The notes under the pieces were generated by a model that saw only the letters and a list, made by a program, of their open reading frames with translations, made no database searches and was not told the origin of the DNA. This document shows positions 3 to 16,955 of a DNA stretch of 49,700 nt, piece by piece. Origin of the DNA: Escherichia coli (GTDB taxonomy: Bacteria > Pseudomonadota > Gammaproteobacteria > Enterobacterales > Enterobacteriaceae). A program made the position numbers and the translations under genes. Each line of letters opens with the position of its first letter. Within the stretch, counting starts at the first letter, position 1. The DNA is taken from NCBI RefSeq assembly GCF_003334255.1, contig NZ_QOWU01000038.1, one strand, 5' to 3'.

Positions 3-368
3 CTGATAGAAACAGAAGCCACTGGAGCACCTCAAAAACACCATCATACACTAAATCAGTAAGTTGGCAGCATCACCCTAGTTGCCAAACAATTAGTGCA
101 GGCCTGCCAACCTACAGAAGAATCATTAATGCCGATTGTGAGCCGCCTTGATGCAGAAAATCGTTGTCCACTGGAAGCATTAATTATTCGTCGATTATTA
201 ATTCAGGCGGCGAATTTTACCGAGAAGCAAACTGTTGAACCGGAGCCGCAACCGCAGCCAATGCCCGTTGACGATGGTGGGCCAGGCTGTCTGGGCATCA
301 TTAAAATTATTTTCTATATTTTTATCTTTGCTGGTTTGATAGGAAAAATACTCCATCTGTTCGGGTGA
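3..368 (+). pseudogene. djlB: 3' region of a DjlB-like J-protein paralog, with an in-frame TAA at 60-62; downstream frame 96-368 encodes a DjlC-like C-terminus with a hydrophobic tail
   Basis: Frame-3 translation 63-368 (..[64 protein letters not shown]) parallels the DjlC C-terminus encoded at 1738-3189 (..[55 protein letters not shown]). The same frame is open from nt 3 but hits TAA at 60-62; the track ORF starts at GTG 96. Confidence 0.5.
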
Positions 369-377
369 CAGTCGACG

Positions 378-932
378 TTAATGTGCGGGAAGCCCGGCAA
401 GTAATCTTTCCGCATTTTTGTAATGTTGTTTGGCGGCCAGTTTTAACCATTTTTGAGATTCATAATGGTTAACATTAATACCTGAGCCATTTCTGTAGAT
501 CAAACCTAAAGTATATTGAGCATGAGCATACCCTTGTTCAGCTGCTTCCTTATACCAGAGAATTGCTTTACGGGTGTCGGGTTTGACCCCCAGACCTTTG
601 AGGTAGATCCACCCCAGTTTACTTTGCGCGCGTGGATTTTCCTGTTCCGCTGATTGCTCATACCAGTATCTCGCCTGTGTATAATCCAGTGGTTTACCGT
701 CGCTACCATGAAGATAAAATTCTCCAAGGCGATATTGCGACGTTGAGTGACCATGAATCGCGGAAAGCTCCGTGGCTGCCGTGGTGAATGGAAGACTGCC
801 CGGTGAGCTTAAATAATCAAAGGCATAATTCACCATGGCTTTATCACGCAACGTCGTTTTCTTGGGTTGGCTAATACAGGTAATTGCTGCAACTATAAAA
901 ATTGCGAATATATACATTAATTTTTTATTCAT
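378..932 (-). CDS. ybeT: Sel1/TPR-like repeat protein with N-terminal signal peptide
   Basis: 184-aa ORF; hydrophobic N-terminus [19 protein letters not shown]; Sel1-type repeats ([32 protein letters not shown]); position between the two J-protein genes. Confidence 0.8.
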
Positions 933-1033
933 GTGTGAATGCTTCGATTTTCTTTTTATTTTGAAAGCGTCAAGTTTATACTCATCAATAATAAAAAAGT
1001 AGTCAGTTAATGCACTTAAGGGATTATTAACAA

Positions 1034-1741
1034 ATGAATAAGGAAGAACAATATCTTCTTTTTGCGCTTTCTGCGCCCATGGAAATACTTAATCAGGGTT
1101 GCAAACCCGCGCATGACTCGCCAAAAATGTATACTGGGATAAAAGAATTCGAGCTCTCATCATCCTGGGGAATAAATAATCGTGATGATTTAATTCAGAC
1201 TATTTATCAGATGACTGATGATGGTCATGCCAATGATTTAGCTGGCTTATATCTGACATGGCATCGCTCTTCCCCTGAAGAGTGGAAAGCATTAATTGCT
1301 GGTGGCTCGGAGAGAGGGTTGATTTATACCCAATTCGTTGCCCAAACCGCTATGTGCTGTGGGGAAGGGGGAATCAAAGCCTGGGATTATGTTCGAATGG
1401 GGTTTCTGTCACGGGTCGGTGTGCTCAACAAGTGGCTGACGGAAGAAGAGAGTTTATGGCTGCAATCGCGCGTCTATGTACGAGCTCACCATTACTATCA
1501 CAGCTGGATGCACTATTTTTCCGCCTATTCGTTAGGACGTCTCTACTGGCAATCTTCTCAGTGCGAAGACAACACTTCGCTACGCGAGGCGCTAACCCTG
1601 TACAAATACGATAGCGCCGGGAGTCGTATGTTCGAAGAGCTGGCAGCGGGAAGCGATCGTTTCTATGCCACGCTTCCCTGGCAGCCATTAACTGTCCAGT
1701 CTGAATGCCCGGTAACGCTTAAGGATGTGAGCGACCTATGA
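1034..1741 (+). CDS. ybeU: Conserved protein of unknown function (YbeU/YbeR family)
   Basis: 235-aa ORF; its stop TGA 1739-1741 overlaps the ATG of the next gene (ATGA). Confidence 0.8.
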
Positions 1742-3189
1742 AAACATGTTGGCAAATCCTCGAAATTGAAAGCACGACGCAAATAGACATTATCCGCCAG
1801 GCTTATCTTGCTCGCTTACCGTTGTGTCATCCCGAAACCGATCCGCAAGGGTTTAAAGCATTACGCCAGGCCTATGAAGAGGCCCTGCGACTGGCGGTAA
1901 ATCCTGTCGAGGAAGCAGATGATGAAGAAAAAGATGCTGCCGCTGAACATGAAATACTACGTGCATTCAGGACATTACTGGATTCAGAAAGTGATCGTTT
2001 TCAGCCTTCCGCCTGGCAGAAATTTATTCAGCAATTAAATACCTGGAACATGGAGGATGTCGATCAATTACGCTGGCCGCTGTGTGCAATCGCCATAGAA
2101 GCGCGATATCTTTCATTAAATTGTGCTTCTTTGCTGGCAGAGCGTTTGAACTGGCATTCATTTAATGACAGCGAAGGAATGGATGAGGAAGAAAGGGAGG
2201 CTTTTCTTGAGGCCATTCAGGCTGGTGATTGTTTCGATTTCCTTAGCCTTCTGGAATATCCCATTGCGTTGCAGAACCAGACTGTTGAGTATTACTTCGC
2301 GCTGGAACGTTGCTGCCGTTACCATCCTGACTATGTCACTGCGTTTTTGGCGATGGAAGGTCCGTGGTTAATTCCTGATGATGCAAAGTTACATCGCAAA
2401 CTGTTGCGCTGGTACAGCTCGGTGCAAACAGGTATGGCGGAACTCATTCCTGTCGCTCAACAGTGGCAAACGGAAGAACCAGAAAGCGAAGATGCCCGGT
2501 ATTACTTGTGTGCACAACGTTTGTACTGCGGCGAGGGGGAAAGCCTGCTTGCCGATCTCTGCGCGTACTGGGAAAGTTACCCATCTACACAAGCTGATAA
2601 TTTGTTGTTGCAGTGGAGCAAGCGTCATTGCCCGGATTATTTCGCGTTATTAGTGATGGTTATCGAAGCGCGGAGCATGGTAGATGCGCAAGGTCAACCG
2701 CTGAAATATGTTCCTGGTGAGAGCGCCCGGACGCGGCTGTTATGGGCGGAGATTTTACATAGCGGAAAATTATCGCCGTTAGGTCAATCGTTTATTGAGT
2801 CGTTATTCTTCAAGCGCAAAGCATGGGCGTGGTGGAAATCGAGAGTCGGTAGCGAGACAGAGCAAGATTCACCGTTCCTGGATTTGTATCGGGTAGCGGA
2901 ACAGGTAGTACTTGAAGCGTTTCCGAAACAAGAGATGCTGGCCCGTCTTAATACAAGGCTGGAAGGCGGAGATGCTCATCCATTAGAGGCCATTGTCACC
3001 CGGATGCTTTTGACGAAAGTGAAACTCGAGCCGGAGGATGAAGATGTCGATGAGCCAACACCTGAAAATCATGAAGAAAAAAATGATGAGGGTGAAAAAC
3101 CACAGAGCATTACCAGCATTATCAAAATCAGTTTAACGGTGCTGGTGATAGGTTATGCTCTCGGCAAAATCGCGATGTTGTTTAGCTGA
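1738..3189 (+). CDS. djlC: J-domain co-chaperone partner of HscC, with C-terminal hydrophobic tail
   Basis: 483-aa ORF; N-terminal J-domain-like region (..[33 protein letters not shown]..); acidic linker; C-terminal hydrophobic segment [17 protein letters not shown]. Confidence 0.85.
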
Positions 3190-3204
3190 CGATGTGTTTT
3201 TTGC

Positions 3205-3243
3205 GCCGATGCCGGATGCAGCGTTTACGCCGCATCCGGCAGC
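3205..3243. repeat. REP-type palindromic unit between convergent djlC and hscC
   Basis: gccgatgccggatgcagcgtttacgccgcatccggcagc; GCCGGATG..CATCCGGC palindrome. Confidence 0.6.
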
Positions 3244-3248
3244 CGTGT

Positions 3249-4919
3249 TTATGGGATCTCAATGGCTAAATAATCGCTCGCCCGCCGCCGAACTTCATCC
3301 ACGCGGGCCATATCGTTTGACTGCAACGCCGCATCAAAATCGGTGATCACCCGGCCGATCTCTTCTCGCTCGTCACCCAGCGCCCGCGCCCACAACTCTT
3401 CCAGTTTGGCTTTAAAGGTGCGATTGATGAGCATATCGCGCGGATAAATTTTCAATGCGGATAACCGCGTCCGACTCTCTTCAATCTGCTGCGCGCTCAA
3501 TGTTACCGGGCTGTGGTTAATCACTCTGGACTTAACGCTGCCGTCTTCCAGAAGCACGTCAACTTCAAGCAACCCGTTGATATCATAACTAAAGCGAATA
3601 TCAATCGACTGATAAGCCCCGGTTTTCTTCAACGGCACATCGAAGGATTCCACCAGAATGTTGTTTTTAACTTTGTGGTTTTCTCCCTGATAGACGTTAA
3701 CCGTAATTGAATCCTGTTCCGGGTGCATGGTTGAATAAGTTTCTACACGCGACACGGGCACAGTGGTGTTTCGTTCAATAATCGGCGAGAAAATGCCGGA
3801 AACGCCCTGGCGGTTAACTTCAACGCCCAACGAGTAAGGGCAAATATCAGTGAGGATTACCTCTTCAATATCTTCACTGCGTAAGCGGCAGGCGGCCTGG
3901 ATTGCTGCGCCCAGCGCGACAATGGTGCTCGGATCGTAACTTTGATACGGTAATTTGCCAAACAGACGCACGGCGATTCGCTGCACCAGCGGCATTTGTG
4001 ACGCGCCGCCAACCAGCACCAGACTGTCGATTTGACTCGGCTTCAGACGCGCATCGCGCAACGCCTGTTCAATCGGCACTCGCAAGCGATTGAGCAGCGG
4101 CAACCACAAATCTTCCAGTTCGTTCTCGTAAAATTCGCATTCCCGCGTTTCTTCCTGATACTGCCAGCGAATGTGCAATGGCGATTGATTGCTACATTTT
4201 GCCGCTTCCACACAGGCGTACAAGGCTGCCAGTTCACTCTCGTTAAGCGTGGTCCTGGCGACATCCGCGCGTTTTAAAACCTCATCGACCAGCATATGGG
4301 TAAAATCTTCGCCACCAAGAAAGTTGTCGCCAGCGGAGGCGTGAACTTCAATCACCGGCGTGGCGTACTCAAGCACCGTAACGTCAAACGTGCCGCCACC
4401 GAGATCAAACACCAGCGAACGGGTATTTTGTTGGGTATGCAGGCCATACGCCATCGCAGCTGCTGTGGGTTCATTAATTAAGCGTACCGCATTTAACCCG
4501 GCTAACTCCGCTGCTAAACGGGTATGCTTGCGTTGTTCATCGCTGAAATAAGCCGGAACGGAGATCACCACATCTTTAATCGGACGTTGCAGAAATTCTT
4601 CGGCATCTTCTTTTAATGAGCGTAATACCAAAGAGGACAGTTCTGGCGCGTTAAATGTGTCGCTGCCTAACCGCCAGTTGGTATTACTGCCCATTGCACG
4701 TTTAAATAACGCTGCCGTTTTATCCGGATGCGAAGTACGCCGTGATACAGCCGGTTTTCCGACTAAAATATGATTATTTTCATCCATGCTAATTATGGAT
4801 GGTGTTAAATATTCACCGAACTTATTTGGAATTAATTGCGCGGCACCGTCTTTCCAGACGGCAATTAAACTATTGGTAGTACCGAGATCGATACCAATGG
4901 CGAGTTCTGCATTATCTAT
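3249..4919 (-). CDS. hscC: Atypical Hsp70-family chaperone; conserved N-terminus is encoded upstream of the first ATG but no canonical in-frame start codon exists
   Basis: Track ORF 3249-4787 (512 aa) starts at an internal Met. The same frame continues upstream as QDINAIDNAELAIGIDLGTTNSLIAVWKDGAAQLIPNKFGEYLTPSIIS-MDENNH.., carrying the Hsp70 phosphate-1 motif IGIDLGTTNS. An in-frame TAA lies at 4958-4956; between it and 4787 there is no ATG, GTG or TTG, only ATA codons at 4928-4926 and 4919-4917. Confidence 0.8.
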   Translation of the reverse strand: MDNAELAIGIDLGTTNSLIAVWKDGAAQLIPNKFGEYLTPSIISMDENNHILVGKPAVSRRTSHPDKTAALFKRAMGSNTNWRLGSDTFNAPELSSLVLRSLKEDAEEFLQRPIKDVVISVPAYFSDEQRKHTRLAAELAGLNAVRLINEPTAAAMAYGLHTQQNTRSLVFDLGGGTFDVTVLEYATPVIEVHASAGDNFLGGEDFTHMLVDEVLKRADVARTTLNESELAALYACVEAAKCSNQSPLHIRWQYQEETRECEFYENELEDLWLPLLNRLRVPIEQALRDARLKPSQIDSLVLVGGASQMPLVQRIAVRLFGKLPYQSYDPSTIVALGAAIQAACRLRSEDIEEVILTDICPYSLGVEVNRQGVSGIFSPIIERNTTVPVSRVETYSTMHPEQDSITVNVYQGENHKVKNNILVESFDVPLKKTGAYQSIDIRFSYDINGLLEVDVLLEDGSVKSRVINHSPVTLSAQQIEESRTRLSALKIYPRDMLINRTFKAKLEELWARALGDEREEIGRVITDFDAALQSNDMARVDEVRRRASDYLAIEIP

Positions 4920-5002
4920 TGCATTTATATCTTGAAAGAAAAAGAGATAAACAGATTAAGACCACCCAGGTAACGCGTGGTGATCTTAATCAATGACGTG
5001 TG

Positions 5003-5938
5003 TTAAGCGTAAAATTTCAGACGATCAGCCAGTAAATCAACAAAGCCCTGACGATCAACATCGACCATTACGGTGGCATTCGGTTTATTGCCTGTCAGAT
5101 AATAATAATCAACAACCGTCATACCCTGGGTATATTTCCCCTGTGTTTCCACGCCAACCCAGCGCTCAACAGAGGTAAATAACTCCGGTTTCAACAGCCA
5201 GGCGATGGTGCATGGGTCATGCAGTGGTGCGCCGACAAAGCCCCATTTTTCGTCTTTATGATATTCGAGGAAGAAATCCAGCAGTTCGGCAACAATGGTT
5301 GAAACAGGGTTACCAATCGCGCGGAAACGCTCGGTGTCTTCAACGTGGATTTGTGCTTTATGAGTAACATCCAGACCGGCCATCACCACCGGGATCCCTG
5401 ACTGGAAGACAATTTCTGCCGCTTCCGGGTCAACGTAAATATTAAATTCAGCCGCAGGCGTCCAGTTACCCAGCCCCATAGCGCCACCCATAATCACGAT
5501 ACGGGCAATTTTGCTATGCAGTTCCGGATGGCTATTGAGCAGCAAGGCAACGTTAGTTTGCGGTCCGGTAGACACAATGGTGACAGGTTCCGCACTTTCA
5601 CGCAGCGTTTTCGCCATCAGCTCTACCGCCGTACAGTTTTGCGGTGCGAATGTCGGTTCCGGTAATGCCGGGCCGTCGAGACCGCTTTCGCCGTGCACAT
5701 TGTCCGCGATAATCAACTCACGCATTAACGGTTTTACCGCGCCGCCTGCTACCGGAATATCGGTGCGATTAAGCAAGGTCAGCATACGCAGAACATTGCG
5801 TAAGGTTTTTTCTGGTGTCTGGTTTCCGGCGGAAGACGTAATTGCTTTGACATCAAGCTCTGGTGAGGCGAGGGCGAGAACTATTGCGATAGCGTCGTCA
5901 TGACCTGGGTCGCAATCTAACAGAATTGGCAGTGCCAT
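5003..5938 (-). CDS. rihA: Pyrimidine-specific ribonucleoside hydrolase (IU-NH family)
   Basis: N-terminal [12 protein letters not shown] nucleoside-hydrolase motif; start refined to ATG 5938 (311 aa), preceded by AAGGAG; the track ORF adds 11 codons upstream. Confidence 0.9.
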
Positions 5939-6055
5939 TGTTGCTCCTTGTTGTGTGCTTCTTTGCGACAAGGGTAACGCCAGGATGTAACAGATACGAG
6001 GGGCGAAACGATAAAGCGTGAGATGGCGCGCAATTGGGTATGCGCGCCAGAGTGA

Positions 6056-6781
6056 TTAATGCAGGATTTTCGCGAGGAAGTCTTTTGCGCGGTCCGATTT
6101 CGGATCATCGAAGAAAGCGTCTTTCGGCGAGTCTTCGACAATTTTACCCTCGTCCATAAAGATCACCCGATTCGCCACTTTACGGGCAAAGCCCATTTCG
6201 TGGGTCACCACCATCATGGTCATTCCTTCGTTCGCCAGTTCCACCATCACGTCCAGTACTTCGTTGATCATCTCCGGATCCAGCGCCGATGTCGGTTCGT
6301 CAAACAGCATCGCAATAGGATCCATACACAACGCGCGAGCGATTGCCACACGCTGCTGCTGACCGCCGGAAAGCTGCGCCGGAAACTTATTGGCGTGAGC
6401 AGAAAGCCCGACACGCTCCAGCAGTTTCAGGGCTTTTTCACGAGCCGGCGCTTTATCGCGTTTAAGCACTTTCACCTGCGCCAGGGTCAGGTTTTCGATA
6501 ATCGACAGATGAGGGAACAGCTCGAAATGCTGGAATACCATCCCGACGCGGGAACGCAGCTTTGCCAGATCGGTTTTCTTGTCGTTAACCACGATACCAT
6601 CGACGGTGATTTCACCTTGCTGCACCGGTTCGAGGCCGTTGACGGTTTTAATCAGCGTTGATTTGCCGGAACCAGACGGGCCGCAAACCACCACCACTTC
6701 GCCTTTTTTCACTTCGGTTGAGCAGTCGGTCAGCACCTGAAAGTGACCATGCCATTTTGAAACATTTTTCAGGGTAATCAT
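6056..6781 (-). CDS. gltL: Glutamate/aspartate ABC transporter ATP-binding subunit
   Basis: Walker [13 protein letters not shown] signature LSGGQQQR, Walker [12 protein letters not shown]. Confidence 0.9.
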
Positions 6782-7455
6782 TATGCTGTCCTTCTTTTCA
6801 AGTAGCTGACCAACAACGACGCGCTAAGACTAATAACGAAATAAACAAATCCGGCAAACAGGATCATCTCAACCTGCGTACCATCACGCTCACCAATGGT
6901 TGAGGCGGTACGGAAGAAATCGGCCAGGGATAACACATACACCAGTGAGGTATCCTGGAACAGTACGATGCCCTGAGTGAGCAGCAGCGGCACCATCGCG
7001 CGGAACGCCTGCGGCAGAATAATCAGTTTCATCGACTGCCAGTGAGTCATTCCCAACGCCAGCGCGGCGCTCGATTGACCACGAGAAATACTTTGAATAC
7101 CAGCACGGATAATCTCTGAATAGTAGGCCGCTTCAAACATCGAAAACGCCACCATCGCCGAAATTAAACGGATATCATTTTTTGGCGATAATCCCAGCAC
7201 GTTTTGCAGAAAACCCGGCACGATCAGGTAAAACCACAGCAAAACCATAACTAAAGGAATCGAGCGGAATACGTTAACGTAGGCTTTGGCAAACCACGCC
7301 ACGGGCGCAAAGCTGGATAAACGCATCACCGCCAGCATCGTGCCCCACAAAATACCAATCACTACCGCCGTGACGGTGATTTTCAGGGTGATCACCAGCC
7401 CGTCGAGCAGATATGGCAGGGAAGGGACAATGGAACTCCAGTCAAACTCGTACAT
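6781..7455 (-). CDS. gltK: Glutamate/aspartate ABC transporter permease
   Basis: 224-aa polytopic membrane protein; stop overlaps gltL start (TAATG). Confidence 0.9.
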
Positions 7456-8195
7456 TATTTGCCCCCCATGTTGCCAGGCAGGCGAACTTTACGTTCAACC
7501 AGCGTCATCACCAGCATGATAAAAGCGTTAATCAACACATACGCCAGCGTAATGGCGGTAAACGACTCCCAGGCATGGGCTGAGTAATCGAGCAATTTAC
7601 CCGCCTGCGCCGCCATATCCACCAGACCGATAGTCGAGGCGATGGCGGAGTTTTTCACCAGGTTCATCATCTCTGAGGTCATCGGCGGGACGATAACGCG
7701 ATAAGCATTAGGCAGCAGTACGTATCGATAAGCCTGCGGTAGCGTCAGGCCCATCGCCAGCGCGGCATTTTTTTGCCCTCGCGGCAGCGACTGAATCGCG
7801 GCGCGTACCTGTTCGCAAACACGGGCGGCGGTAAACAGCCCCAGGCAGAGCATGGATGAAAGGAAAAACTGAATATTGGGATCCAGCTCGGCCTTAAACC
7901 ACATGCCGATTTTCTCCGGCAGCAGCTCCGGGATCACCAGATACCAGGTAAAGAATTGCACAATCAACGGCACGTTGCGGAACAGTTCGACATACAACGT
8001 ACCCAGACCAGAGAGAAAACGGTTTGGAACGGTACGTAAAATGCCGAAAAATGAACCGACGAGGAAAGCGATAATCCAGGCGCAGATCGACAAAGCGATC
8101 GTCACCTGAAAACCACTCCAGATCCAACCAAGATAGGTGGTGTTGCCGAACGGGGCTTGTTGTAAAAAAATACCCCAGTTCCAGTCTATAGACAT
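7455..8195 (-). CDS. gltJ: Glutamate/aspartate ABC transporter permease
   Basis: 246-aa membrane protein; stop overlaps gltK start (TAATG); GGAG 8 nt upstream of ATG 8195. Confidence 0.9.
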
Positions 8196-8202
8196 AAATC
8201 TA

Positions 8203-8242
8203 CTCCAGAAAAAAGAGGGTAGCAGCGTTAACTGCTACCCTC
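8203..8242 (-). terminator. Intrinsic terminator/attenuator hairpin between gltI and gltJ
   Basis: Perfect 11-bp stem gagggtagcag/ctgctaccctc (8215-8225 / 8232-8242), loop cgttaa, followed on the minus strand by TTTTTT (8214-8209) that runs directly into the gltJ ribosome-binding site. Confidence 0.7.
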
Positions 8243-8370
8243 GAAGATTGTTACCCAGCGTATTGCGGTTTTCAGGCCCGATGGGGAACGACCATCAGGC
8301 GTATAGTCTGTCCGTGCTACGTAACAATCGAGAGGGCTGGAATTTCCGCCCCTGGTTCTTGTAATTAGTT
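8209..8370 (-). ncRNA. sroC: gltI 3'UTR-derived small RNA (SroC-like)
   Basis: Positional: the gltI-gltJ spacer ending at the hairpin terminator is where SroC is described in E. coli; the 5' end is not determinable from sequence alone. Confidence 0.45.
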
Positions 8371-9273
8371 CAGTGCCTTGTCATTCGGTTCTTTGAACAG
8401 TGCTTTCATTTCGTCTGACAGTTCGAAATTCATGTTCAGGTTTTTCGGCGGAATTGGATTTTTGAACCACTTATCAAACCATTTTTCCGCTTCACCGGAG
8501 GTCTGCACCTGAGCGATGGTGTCATCCATCAGCTTTTTGAACTGCGGATCATCTTTACGCAACATACAACCGTAGGCCTCCTGAGACTGCGGCTTGCCGA
8601 CGATTTCCCAGTTGTCTGGTTTCTTCGCTTTCGCACGTTCACCGGCCAGCAGAGCGTCATCCATCATAAAGGCAACGGCACGACCGCTTTCCAGGGTGCG
8701 GAAAGAGTCACCGTGATCTTTGGCGCTGATGATGCGCATATTCATTTTTTGCTCTTCATTCAGTTTGTTGAGCAAAACTTCAGAGGTAGTGCCGGAAGTG
8801 ACGACTACGGCTTTGTCTTTCAGGTTGGCAAAATCTTTGATATCGCCACCCTTTTTGGTCAACAGGCGCGTACCGACCACGAAAATAGTGTCAGAGAAAG
8901 CCGCCTGTTTTTGGCGTTCGACGTTGTTGGTGGTAGAACCACATTCAAAATCGAAAGTGCCGTTTTGCAGCAGTGGAATACGGTTTTGTGAGGTAATCGG
9001 AATCAGTTTTACCTGCAAGTCCGGTTTGTTGAGTTTCTTTTTCACTGCTTCAACAATGGCGTTGGAGTAATCCTGCGAGTAACCCACCACTTTTTGCTGA
9101 TTGTCGTAATAAGAGAAAGGCACTGAAGATTCACGGTGACCGACGACAATCACACCGTTTTTGGCGATTTTGTCCAGAGTACTGCCCGCTGCCGGGGCGG
9201 CGTCATCTGCCTGTGCCAGTCCTGCGGAAAGCGCCAGGGCGAGGATTGCTGTGGCAGGTTTACGTAATTGCAT
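8365..9273 (-). CDS. gltI: Periplasmic glutamate/aspartate-binding protein
   Basis: Start refined to ATG 9273 (MQLRKPATAILALALSAGLAQA signal peptide) with AAGGAG upstream; the track ORF extends 25 codons further. Confidence 0.9.
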   Translation of the reverse strand: MQLRKPATAILALALSAGLAQADDAAPAAGSTLDKIAKNGVIVVGHRESSVPFSYYDNQQKVVGYSQDYSNAIVEAVKKKLNKPDLQVKLIPITSQNRIPLLQNGTFDFECGSTTNNVERQKQAAFSDTIFVVGTRLLTKKGGDIKDFANLKDKAVVVTSGTTSEVLLNKLNEEQKMNMRIISAKDHGDSFRTLESGRAVAFMMDDALLAGERAKAKKPDNWEIVGKPQSQEAYGCMLRKDDPQFKKLMDDTIAQVQTSGEAEKWFDKWFKNPIPPKNLNMNFELSDEMKALFKEPNDKALN

Positions 9274-9669
9274 ATCCAACTCCTTTATCTTCTGCGTTAA
9301 GAACGCATGGATACCCGTTGTGAGTGTTTGTGTTGTTATCGTCTGCAACTTTATTGTGCAGTGTTGTGCCTGTTAGGTAACATTTAGTTTGGCTAAATGT
9401 AAAGATATTGCTGTTTTATTGTTTGTTTTTGCGAGATGCGCCGCACCATTCCGAAGCAAAATTCTTAAAATGCACTCTTTTAGTGCTACCGCTGGATTAC
9501 TGTGGTGCAACTAGGTTGTACTGATGCTGATTCAGGGTTTGCCTTGTATAACAAAGCAATAGATGTGCCAAAGTTGGATAGGAGAATATTGTTATCCGGA
9601 TAATGCACTGATGCCGCATCCGGTGAGCGTGCCGAAATATGGGATGTATTCCGGCACGATAAGAAGGGA

Positions 9670-16756: not shown

Positions 16757-16831
16757 TGGCTGGGGTACGAGGATTCGAACCTCGGAATGCCGGAATCAGA
16801 ATCCGGTGCCTTACCGCTTGGCGATACCCCA
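16757..16831 (-). tRNA. glnV: tRNA-Gln (anticodon CUG)
   Basis: Minus-strand 75 nt: TGGGGTATCGCCAAGCGGTAAGGCACCGGATTCTGATTCCGGCATTCCGAGGTTCGAATCCTCGTACCCCAGCCA; anticodon loop TTCTGAT, encoded CCA end. glnV and glnX are identical so the symbol is nominal. Confidence 0.9.
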
Positions 16832-16878
16832 ACAAATTGGTTTTGAATTTGCCGAACATATTCGACACATTCAGAATT

Positions 16879-16955
16879 TGGTGGCTACGACGGGATTCGA
16901 ACCTGTGACCCCATCATTATGAGTGATGTGCTCTAACCAACTGAGCTACGTAGCC
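16879..16955 (-). tRNA. metT: Elongator tRNA-Met (anticodon CAU)
   Basis: Minus-strand 77 nt: GGCTACGTAGCTCAGTTGGTTAGAGCACATCACTCATAATGATGGGGTCACAGGTTCGAATCCCGTCGTAGCCACCA. Confidence 0.9.

Follow-up and report, generated by a model that had tools for sequence, protein, structure and literature searches.

An HPE triad in place of HPD in the J-domain of Escherichia coli DjlC, the co-chaperone of HscC

The His-Pro-Asp (HPD) tripeptide is treated as the defining and near-inviolable feature of the J-domain. The djlC gene of E. coli contig NZ_QOWU01000038.1 (assembly GCF_003334255.1) departs from it: within the window analysed here, a single stretch of 49,700 nucleotides, positions 1828–1842 read CAT CCC GAA ACC GAT, which encodes H-P-E-T-D. 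The locus therefore raises the question of whether the motif is expanded or atypical, whether the Asp two residues downstream takes over the canonical role, and whether the region is a J-domain at all. A sequence-only reading of the locus had reported these codons, and the letters and the frame are both confirmed. The sole long open reading frame spanning them, 1738..3189 on the plus strand, has 483 codons; (1828 − 1738)/3 = 30, so position 1828 opens codon 31 and the five residues are His31, Pro32, Glu33, Thr34 and Asp35. E. coli K-12 carries this frame under the annotation djlC (co-chaperone DjlC, WP_001300403.1), as do thousands of further genomes of the species.

The N-terminal region of DjlC is a J-domain, as that reading had taken it to be. 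The single sequence scores weakly, short of the usual Pfam significance level, against the DnaJ model (PF00226), with an E-value of 0.036 at full length (residues 4–47 on model positions 2–51) and 0.0021 for residues 1–95 alone. An NCBIfam scan of full-length DjlC matched no family. A single-sequence phmmer search of residues 1–71 against PDB sequences gave marginal matches only (E 0.82), so a family profile is needed to recover solved J-domains. When diverse N-terminal segments of the family are aligned, 58 of 62 members match Pfam DnaJ at E ≤ 0.001, and the profile built from this 62-segment alignment matches 41 distinct solved J-domain sequences, the best being DNAJA1 (E 3.4e-8); 5nro_B, the DnaJ J-domain crystallised on DnaK, is matched at E 3.9e-7. 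Recognition of the DjlC J-domain depends on such family-level profiles.

Superposition of AlphaFold models agrees with the profiles, the best structural matches of the DjlC models being J-domains. In the 95-residue model, helix II covers residues 16–26 and the loop residues 27–35. In the full-length AF2 model (mean pLDDT 86.7), helix II covers residues 16–29, the loop holding HPETD residues 30–35 and helix III residues 36–54, and the II–III loop region is modelled with a pLDDT of 88–95. Helix IV is seen in neither of the two models.

The likeness to the DnaJ and DNAJA1 J-domains (PF00226) extends from topology to individual residues. The order helix I–helix II–loop–helix III is shared, the triad lies in the II–III loop, and W/Y5, L8, Y23, the H-P pair, the N/D-P, G and F that come next, and AYE in helix III are common positions. 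DjlC differs in carrying Glu in the triad, in having no clear helix IV, and in a II–III loop that is 3 residues shorter than that of DNAJA1 and about 7 shorter than that of DnaJ; unlike DnaJ, its helix II also has a conserved Leu27-Pro28, of which Pro28 is less conserved in distant relatives.

The rest of the protein places DjlC with the DjlC/DjlB HscC co-chaperones (YbeV/YbeS; PF27158). An N-terminal HPE J-domain is followed by the PF27158 helical domain and a C-terminal tail-anchor helix, and an HscC-type Hsp70 gene is adjacent; the HPE is the same as in DjlB, the neighbours are ybeU and hscC, and an activity has been published. Residues 72–427 are modelled as a confident all-alpha repeat, and PF27158 is annotated on nearly all DjlC homologues. 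DjlC itself is reported as a tail-anchored protein of the inner membrane (PMC8215388). In place of the invariant His-Pro-Asp of J-domains it has His-Pro-Glu, and it is thus a J-domain protein with a variant triad, a conservative one that is accepted as functional in the literature (PMC13254874).

Table 1. Features of the djlC locus (positions in the window; residue numbers are those of the encoded protein)
Feature	Position	Strand	Evidence
ybeU (DUF1266); stop overlaps djlC start in ATGA	1034..1741	+	
djlC coding sequence, 483 codons plus stop; J-domain co-chaperone of HscC with a membrane tail anchor	1738..3189	+	ORF, annotation, no SNP vs MG1655
J-domain, residues 1–55; helix I 4–8, helix II 16–29, helix III 36–54; no clear helix IV	1738..1902	+	
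HPE triad H31 P32 E33, positional equivalent of HPD (DnaJ H33 P34 D35)	1828..1836	+	codons, MAFFT, HMM alignment
Family signature HPExDPxGF, residues 31–39; covers HPETD	1828..1854	+	149 unique J segments
Acidic disordered linker after the J-domain, residues 58–67	1909..1938	+	pLDDT < 50
All-alpha TPR-like helical-repeat domain, residues 72–427; contains Pfam PF27158 DjlB_C_2nd	1951..3018	+	
Acidic low-complexity disordered stretch, residues 434–455	3037..3102	+	pLDDT < 50, sequence
C-terminal hydrophobic helix, residues 458–482, tail-anchor transmembrane segment	3109..3183	+	modelled helix; PMC8215388
hscC, partner Hsp70, convergent with djlC; keeps R146, Q341, L356, P388 (DnaK R167, Q378, L391, P419)	3249..4919	-	

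HPETD is an Asp-to-Glu variant of HPD in a shortened II–III loop. When DjlC is aligned by MAFFT with E. coli DnaJ and DjlB, H33-P34-D35 of DnaJ pair with H31-P32-E33 of DjlC, R36-N37 pair with T34-D35, and DjlC carries a 7-residue gap in the II–III loop against DnaJ. The alignment of the family HMM (hPeedP.eG..FkaLReAYe) with DNAJA1 (HPDKNPnEGekFKQISQAYE) places HPE on HPD and the two residues after HPE on the K-N of HPDKN, with Pro on Pro, Gly on Gly and Phe on Phe. MAFFT, the HMM alignment and the Pfam match all put Glu33 on the canonical Asp, which disposes of the case, foreseen in the sequence-only reading, of a true HPD equivalent lying elsewhere.

Glu at this position is fixed across the family. 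HPE stands at residues 31–33 in 111 of 111 N-terminally intact close homologues found in a 90%-cluster search, the paralogue DjlB included; in these proteins, which come from Escherichia, Salmonella, Citrobacter and Enterobacter, it is followed by [T/S/N/I]-D-P-Q-G-F. The HPE of DjlC is therefore not a chance string. An exhaustive search of 50%-identity representatives yields 1,598 proteins at E ≤ 0.001, including relatives of about 900 residues at 25–37% identity. With these representatives added to the homologues of the first search, 149 unique J segments span roughly 25–97% identity to DjlC and read [H 137, N 7, R 3, K 1, P 1]-P-[E 146, D 3]-x-[D 140, N 8, A 1]-P-x-G-[F 146, Y 3]. P32, P36 and G38 are invariant; the search pattern itself demanded the P, P, G and [FYW] of the block, and every N-terminally intact sequence matched it. 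The three residues are invariant too in the independent MAFFT alignment of 62 segments. The other positions of the signature are kept at 98% (E33), 94% (D35), 98% (F39) and 92% (H31), and eight of the nine exceptions at D35 are Asn. Whether HPETD is a family-wide feature, a point that the sequence-only reading had left to an alignment, can thus be answered: HPE is present in DjlB and all close relatives, and Glu in 146 of the 149 segments.

Canonical HPD occurs in none of the 149 unique segments, and in none of the 137 that contain His; Asp in the third position is found only in the three RPD sequences. A Glu codon (GAA or GAG) becomes an Asp codon (GAT or GAC) by a one-base change. With so short a path to Asp, the absence of HPD over such divergence suggests selection for Glu, as far as sequences can speak to this.

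The partner Hsp70 gene, hscC, lies convergent with djlC, 60 nt downstream of it. About 4 kb around djlC match E. coli chromosomes, in which the genes are annotated ybeU, djlC and hscC. Translational coupling of ybeU and djlC is probable, as the stop of the former overlaps the start of the latter (ATGA). Of eight distant relatives consulted, DNA was available for seven loci (L003, L004, L005, L007, L013, L014 and L015). An HscC-type Hsp70 gene directly adjoins the J-protein gene in all seven; the proteins have 556–566 residues, one being cut at a contig end, and are 41–57% identical to HscC and 33–39% to DnaK.

Some of these loci carry further features. In L003, L004 and L007, a DUF1266 protein, a J-protein of the HPE family and an HscC-type Hsp70 form a recurring three-gene module, and there too the DUF1266 gene and the J-protein gene overlap by 4 nt. 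The HscC system may have a third component that has gone unrecognised, the DUF1266 proteins (YbeU/YbeR). A PADLOC scan of DjlC, YbeU, HscC and YbeT for defence-system membership returned nothing. Certain distant members have a triad without His, namely NPE in L005 and L015, KPE in L013 and RPD in L007 and L014. Arg in the His position occurs only together with Asp (RPD), and the NPE, KPE and RPD genes all adjoin an intact HscC-type Hsp70 gene.

The residues that would receive the triad are conserved on the HscC side. In DnaK, HPD is received by Arg167 and Gln378 (for Asp35), by the backbone of Leu391 (for His33) and by Pro419 (for Pro34) (PMC8215388). Arg167, Gln378 and Pro419 in DnaK numbering are unchanged in 8 of 8 HscC-type proteins; for Leu391 this holds in 7 of 8, L013 having Val. 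Other positions near the J-docking site differ from DnaK in a consistent way, with single exceptions: a 4-residue deletion at 208–211 (Asp208–Asp211), D481 to N (S in one protein), D477 to S/T, K414 to R, K421 to S and L392 to T (I in one). The deletion takes out the acidic DnaK loop with the J-contact residue Asp211, as already noted for HscC (PMC8215388). Helix II of DjlC, for its part, keeps two of the six basic residues of DnaJ.

Residues 1–55 of DjlC very probably form a genuine compact J-domain with Glu33 as its acidic triad residue, standing at the place of the HPD Asp and acting on HscC. By homology with the DnaJ–DnaK complex, Glu33 would hydrogen-bond or form a salt bridge with HscC Arg146 and Gln341 (DnaK Arg167 and Gln378), His31 would contact the backbone carbonyl of the linker residue Leu356 (DnaK Leu391), and Pro32 would pack on Pro388 (DnaK Pro419). 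Together, these contacts would make HscC hydrolyse ATP at the inner membrane, to which the C-terminal tail anchor holds DjlC. Thr34 and Asp35 are the counterparts of the K/R-N that follows HPD, in a conserved D-P-x-G-F turn that starts helix III.

The selective reason for Glu is more speculative. Glu might have been selected over Asp because the docking surface of HscC has been remodelled (Asp481 to Asn/Ser, Asp477 to Ser/Thr, Lys414 to Arg and the Asp208–Asp211 deletion), and this surface, together with a much less basic helix II in DjlC, might keep the HscC and DnaK systems separate. According to the account in PMC8215388 (citing Kluck et al. 2002), the HscC ATPase is stimulated only by DjlC, while DnaJ, CbpA and HscB are without effect; the DjlC J-domain is likewise reported in PMC1906734 to be unable to replace that of DnaJ. 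A link of HPE to HscC specificity, plausible from the sequences compared here, has already been suggested in the literature (PMC13254874, PMC10410713).

Glu33 may also be a neutral, conservative swap, inherited from a family ancestor in which it became fixed, with Asp equally good and HscC specificity coming from helix II and the deleted acidic loop. This reading is the less likely one, and it has a definite basis: the DnaK residues that bind Asp35 of DnaJ, Arg167 and Gln378, are the same in every HscC-type protein compared, so that the partner gives no obvious reason for a longer side chain, and either the basic loss in DjlC helix II or the lack of Asp208–Asp211 in HscC could alone explain orthogonality. 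It fares worse against the family data, in which HPD is missing from every His-containing segment despite the one-base path, a pattern that points to purifying selection against Asp.

A further reading goes the opposite way and holds that the HscC-class J-domain uses a re-tuned activation switch, of which HPE would be more than a spelling variant of HPD. Obligatory Glu (no HPD in 137 His-containing segments) fits, and so does an Arg167 clamp remodelled in HscC-type Hsp70s by the changes of Asp481 to Asn or Ser and of Asp477 to Ser/Thr and by the missing Asp208–Asp211 loop; the replacement of His (NPE, KPE, RPD) in some distant lineages whose genes are still operonic with an intact HscC-type Hsp70 fits as well. 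In DnaJ-type systems, a change of His to Gln abolishes function (PMC8215388). If the switch were re-tuned, PExDPxGF would be the unit under conservation, and the HscC class would be able to do without His. This interpretation, built on obligatory Glu, the changes at the Arg167 clamp and the His-less variants, goes beyond the literature searched and is on balance doubtful.

An expanded H-P-x-x-D motif, in which Asp35 would take the role of the canonical Asp, is very improbable. Asp35 is indeed kept in 140 of 149 unique segments, with Asn in 8 more, and since its conservation is close to that of Glu33, conservation alone leaves room for a contribution of Asp35 to the interface. The register, however, pairs Asp35 with the Asn of HPDRN/HPDKN, a position conserved in ordinary J-domains, and the AlphaFold models put it at the N-terminal end of helix III, inside the D-P-x-G-F turn. 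Every alignment gives a shorter loop, not a longer one, and the expanded motif is dropped for this reason. Eight natural sequences have Asn here, which also suits capping or a structural task better than catalysis, a change of the HPD Asp to Asn being reported to destroy function (PMC8215388). The best account of Asp35 is homology with the conserved Asn of HPDKN/HPDRN, not that of a shifted catalytic Asp. Of the two descriptions offered by the sequence-only reading, "expanded or atypical", the second therefore holds, in the form of HPE, whereas the first does not, the loop being 3–7 residues shorter than in DNAJA1 and DnaJ; its proposal that the downstream Asp substitutes for the canonical one gives way with it.

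That the DjlC domain is a degenerate, inactive "J-like" domain (a type IV J-protein) with no Hsp70 stimulation is the least credible reading of all, since the weak single-sequence Pfam score, the non-canonical triad and the missing helix IV on which it could draw are set against a strongly conserved motif with its surrounding residues, a gene linked to an HscC-type Hsp70 across distant bacteria, and the report in PMC8215388 (citing Kluck et al. 2002) that purified DjlC stimulates the HscC ATPase. Recognised J-like domains (e.g. Tim16/Pam16 and the DNAJB13-type "type IV" proteins) do not stimulate Hsp70, unlike DjlC in the account of PMC8215388, and compared with triad-less J-like domains DjlC retains His, Pro and an acidic third residue.

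The preferred reading, an HPE triad acting on HscC in a genuine J-domain, agrees with published work, and the presence of HPE in DjlC is a correct but ordinary observation that is already known, since both the HPE of DjlB and DjlC and the stimulation of the HscC ATPase by DjlC have been described. HPE is given as the only tolerated HPD variant, found in DjlB and DjlC (PMC13254874). In a 2023 survey covering about 280,000 J-domain proteins, HPE accounted for 2,921 domains (~1%), and DjlB and DjlC were listed by name (PMC10410713). Other HPE J-domains in this group (e.g. those fused to Na+/Ca2+ exchanger domains) have the same Asp-to-Glu variant (PMC10410713) and differ in architecture and partners. 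Recent partner-prediction work also uses the HscC–DjlC pairing as a distinct class.

The state of the locus in this strain is a separate matter. DjlC does not differ from the K-12 protein, with no SNP against MG1655 and the same RefSeq accession; what differs here is the start of the partner gene hscC, which is ATA, and the truncation of djlB. Four SNPs against MG1655 lie in window 78–8500, none inside djlC, and the window is otherwise collinear with MG1655 at ~99.95% identity. Plain K-12 MG1655 is ruled out as the source of the window by these four SNPs, by the end of an IS1, by the lack of an IS5 and by a tRNA cluster of reduced size.

The hscC start codon reads ATA at 4917–4919 (minus strand) through a single SNP at 4917; it is ATG in MG1655, Ec55, UTAK-2 and an O104:H4 strain. 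Upstream of Met45 of HscC, the frame offers no alternative ATG, GTG or TTG, and the essential GIDLGTTNS phosphate-binding loop falls within residues 1–44. Judged from the sequence, HscC may be poorly translated in this strain. The ATA allele is found in 3 of 4,404 complete E. coli genomes (strains G1/2, G6/7 and G8), and the IS1 rearrangement of G1/2 differs from the one in the window.

The left end of the window is also altered. Positions 1–77 are an outer IS1 end (its reverse complement begins GGTGATGCTGCCAACTTACTGAT), joined to djlB at about codon 380, and the djlB remnant at 78–368 holds the last ~96 codons on this side. The 77-base IS1 piece also looks like the k=77 contig-end overlap of a short-read assembly. 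In this strain, DjlC is intact and its paralogue djlB is broken. The IS5 that lies between lnt and gltI in MG1655 is absent here (window ~9373–9380). Window 16757–16955 has only tRNA-Gln(CTG) and tRNA-Met, where MG1655 has seven genes (metT leuW glnU glnW metU glnV glnX). The 505 missing bases equal the metT–metU and glnV–glnX repeat distances (393 + 112). Without them, leuW and both tRNA-Gln(UUG) genes would be gone, so that a repeat collapse in short-read assembly is suspected, as likelier than a real loss of tRNA genes.

Damage at this locus is found in other strains as well. In H32 the matched region contains an IS1 transposase gene, UTAK-2 has an hscC frameshift, PM4 has an IS5 insertion beside a separate "Hsp70 family protein" fragment, and G1/2 has an IS1-associated deletion that spans the djlB C-terminus, ybeT and the ybeU N-terminus. 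Such repeated natural damage suggests that the hscC–djlC–djlB system is dispensable.

To the published picture, the present analysis adds little more than documentation on the J-domain and its receiver. Glu sits exactly on the position of the Asp, no family member was found to have reverted to HPD, and the conserved block reaches as far as HPExDPxGF. On the Hsp70 side, the residues that would receive the triad are unchanged (Leu391 in 7 of 8), and neighbouring HscC residues differ consistently. For annotation, DjlC is a reminder that proteins of its type, real J-domain proteins as they are, miss the Pfam thresholds when scanned singly. Natural functional exceptions to HPD show how much the switch between J-domain and Hsp70 tolerates, and DjlC and DjlB are the textbook case of HPE, the only tolerated variant.
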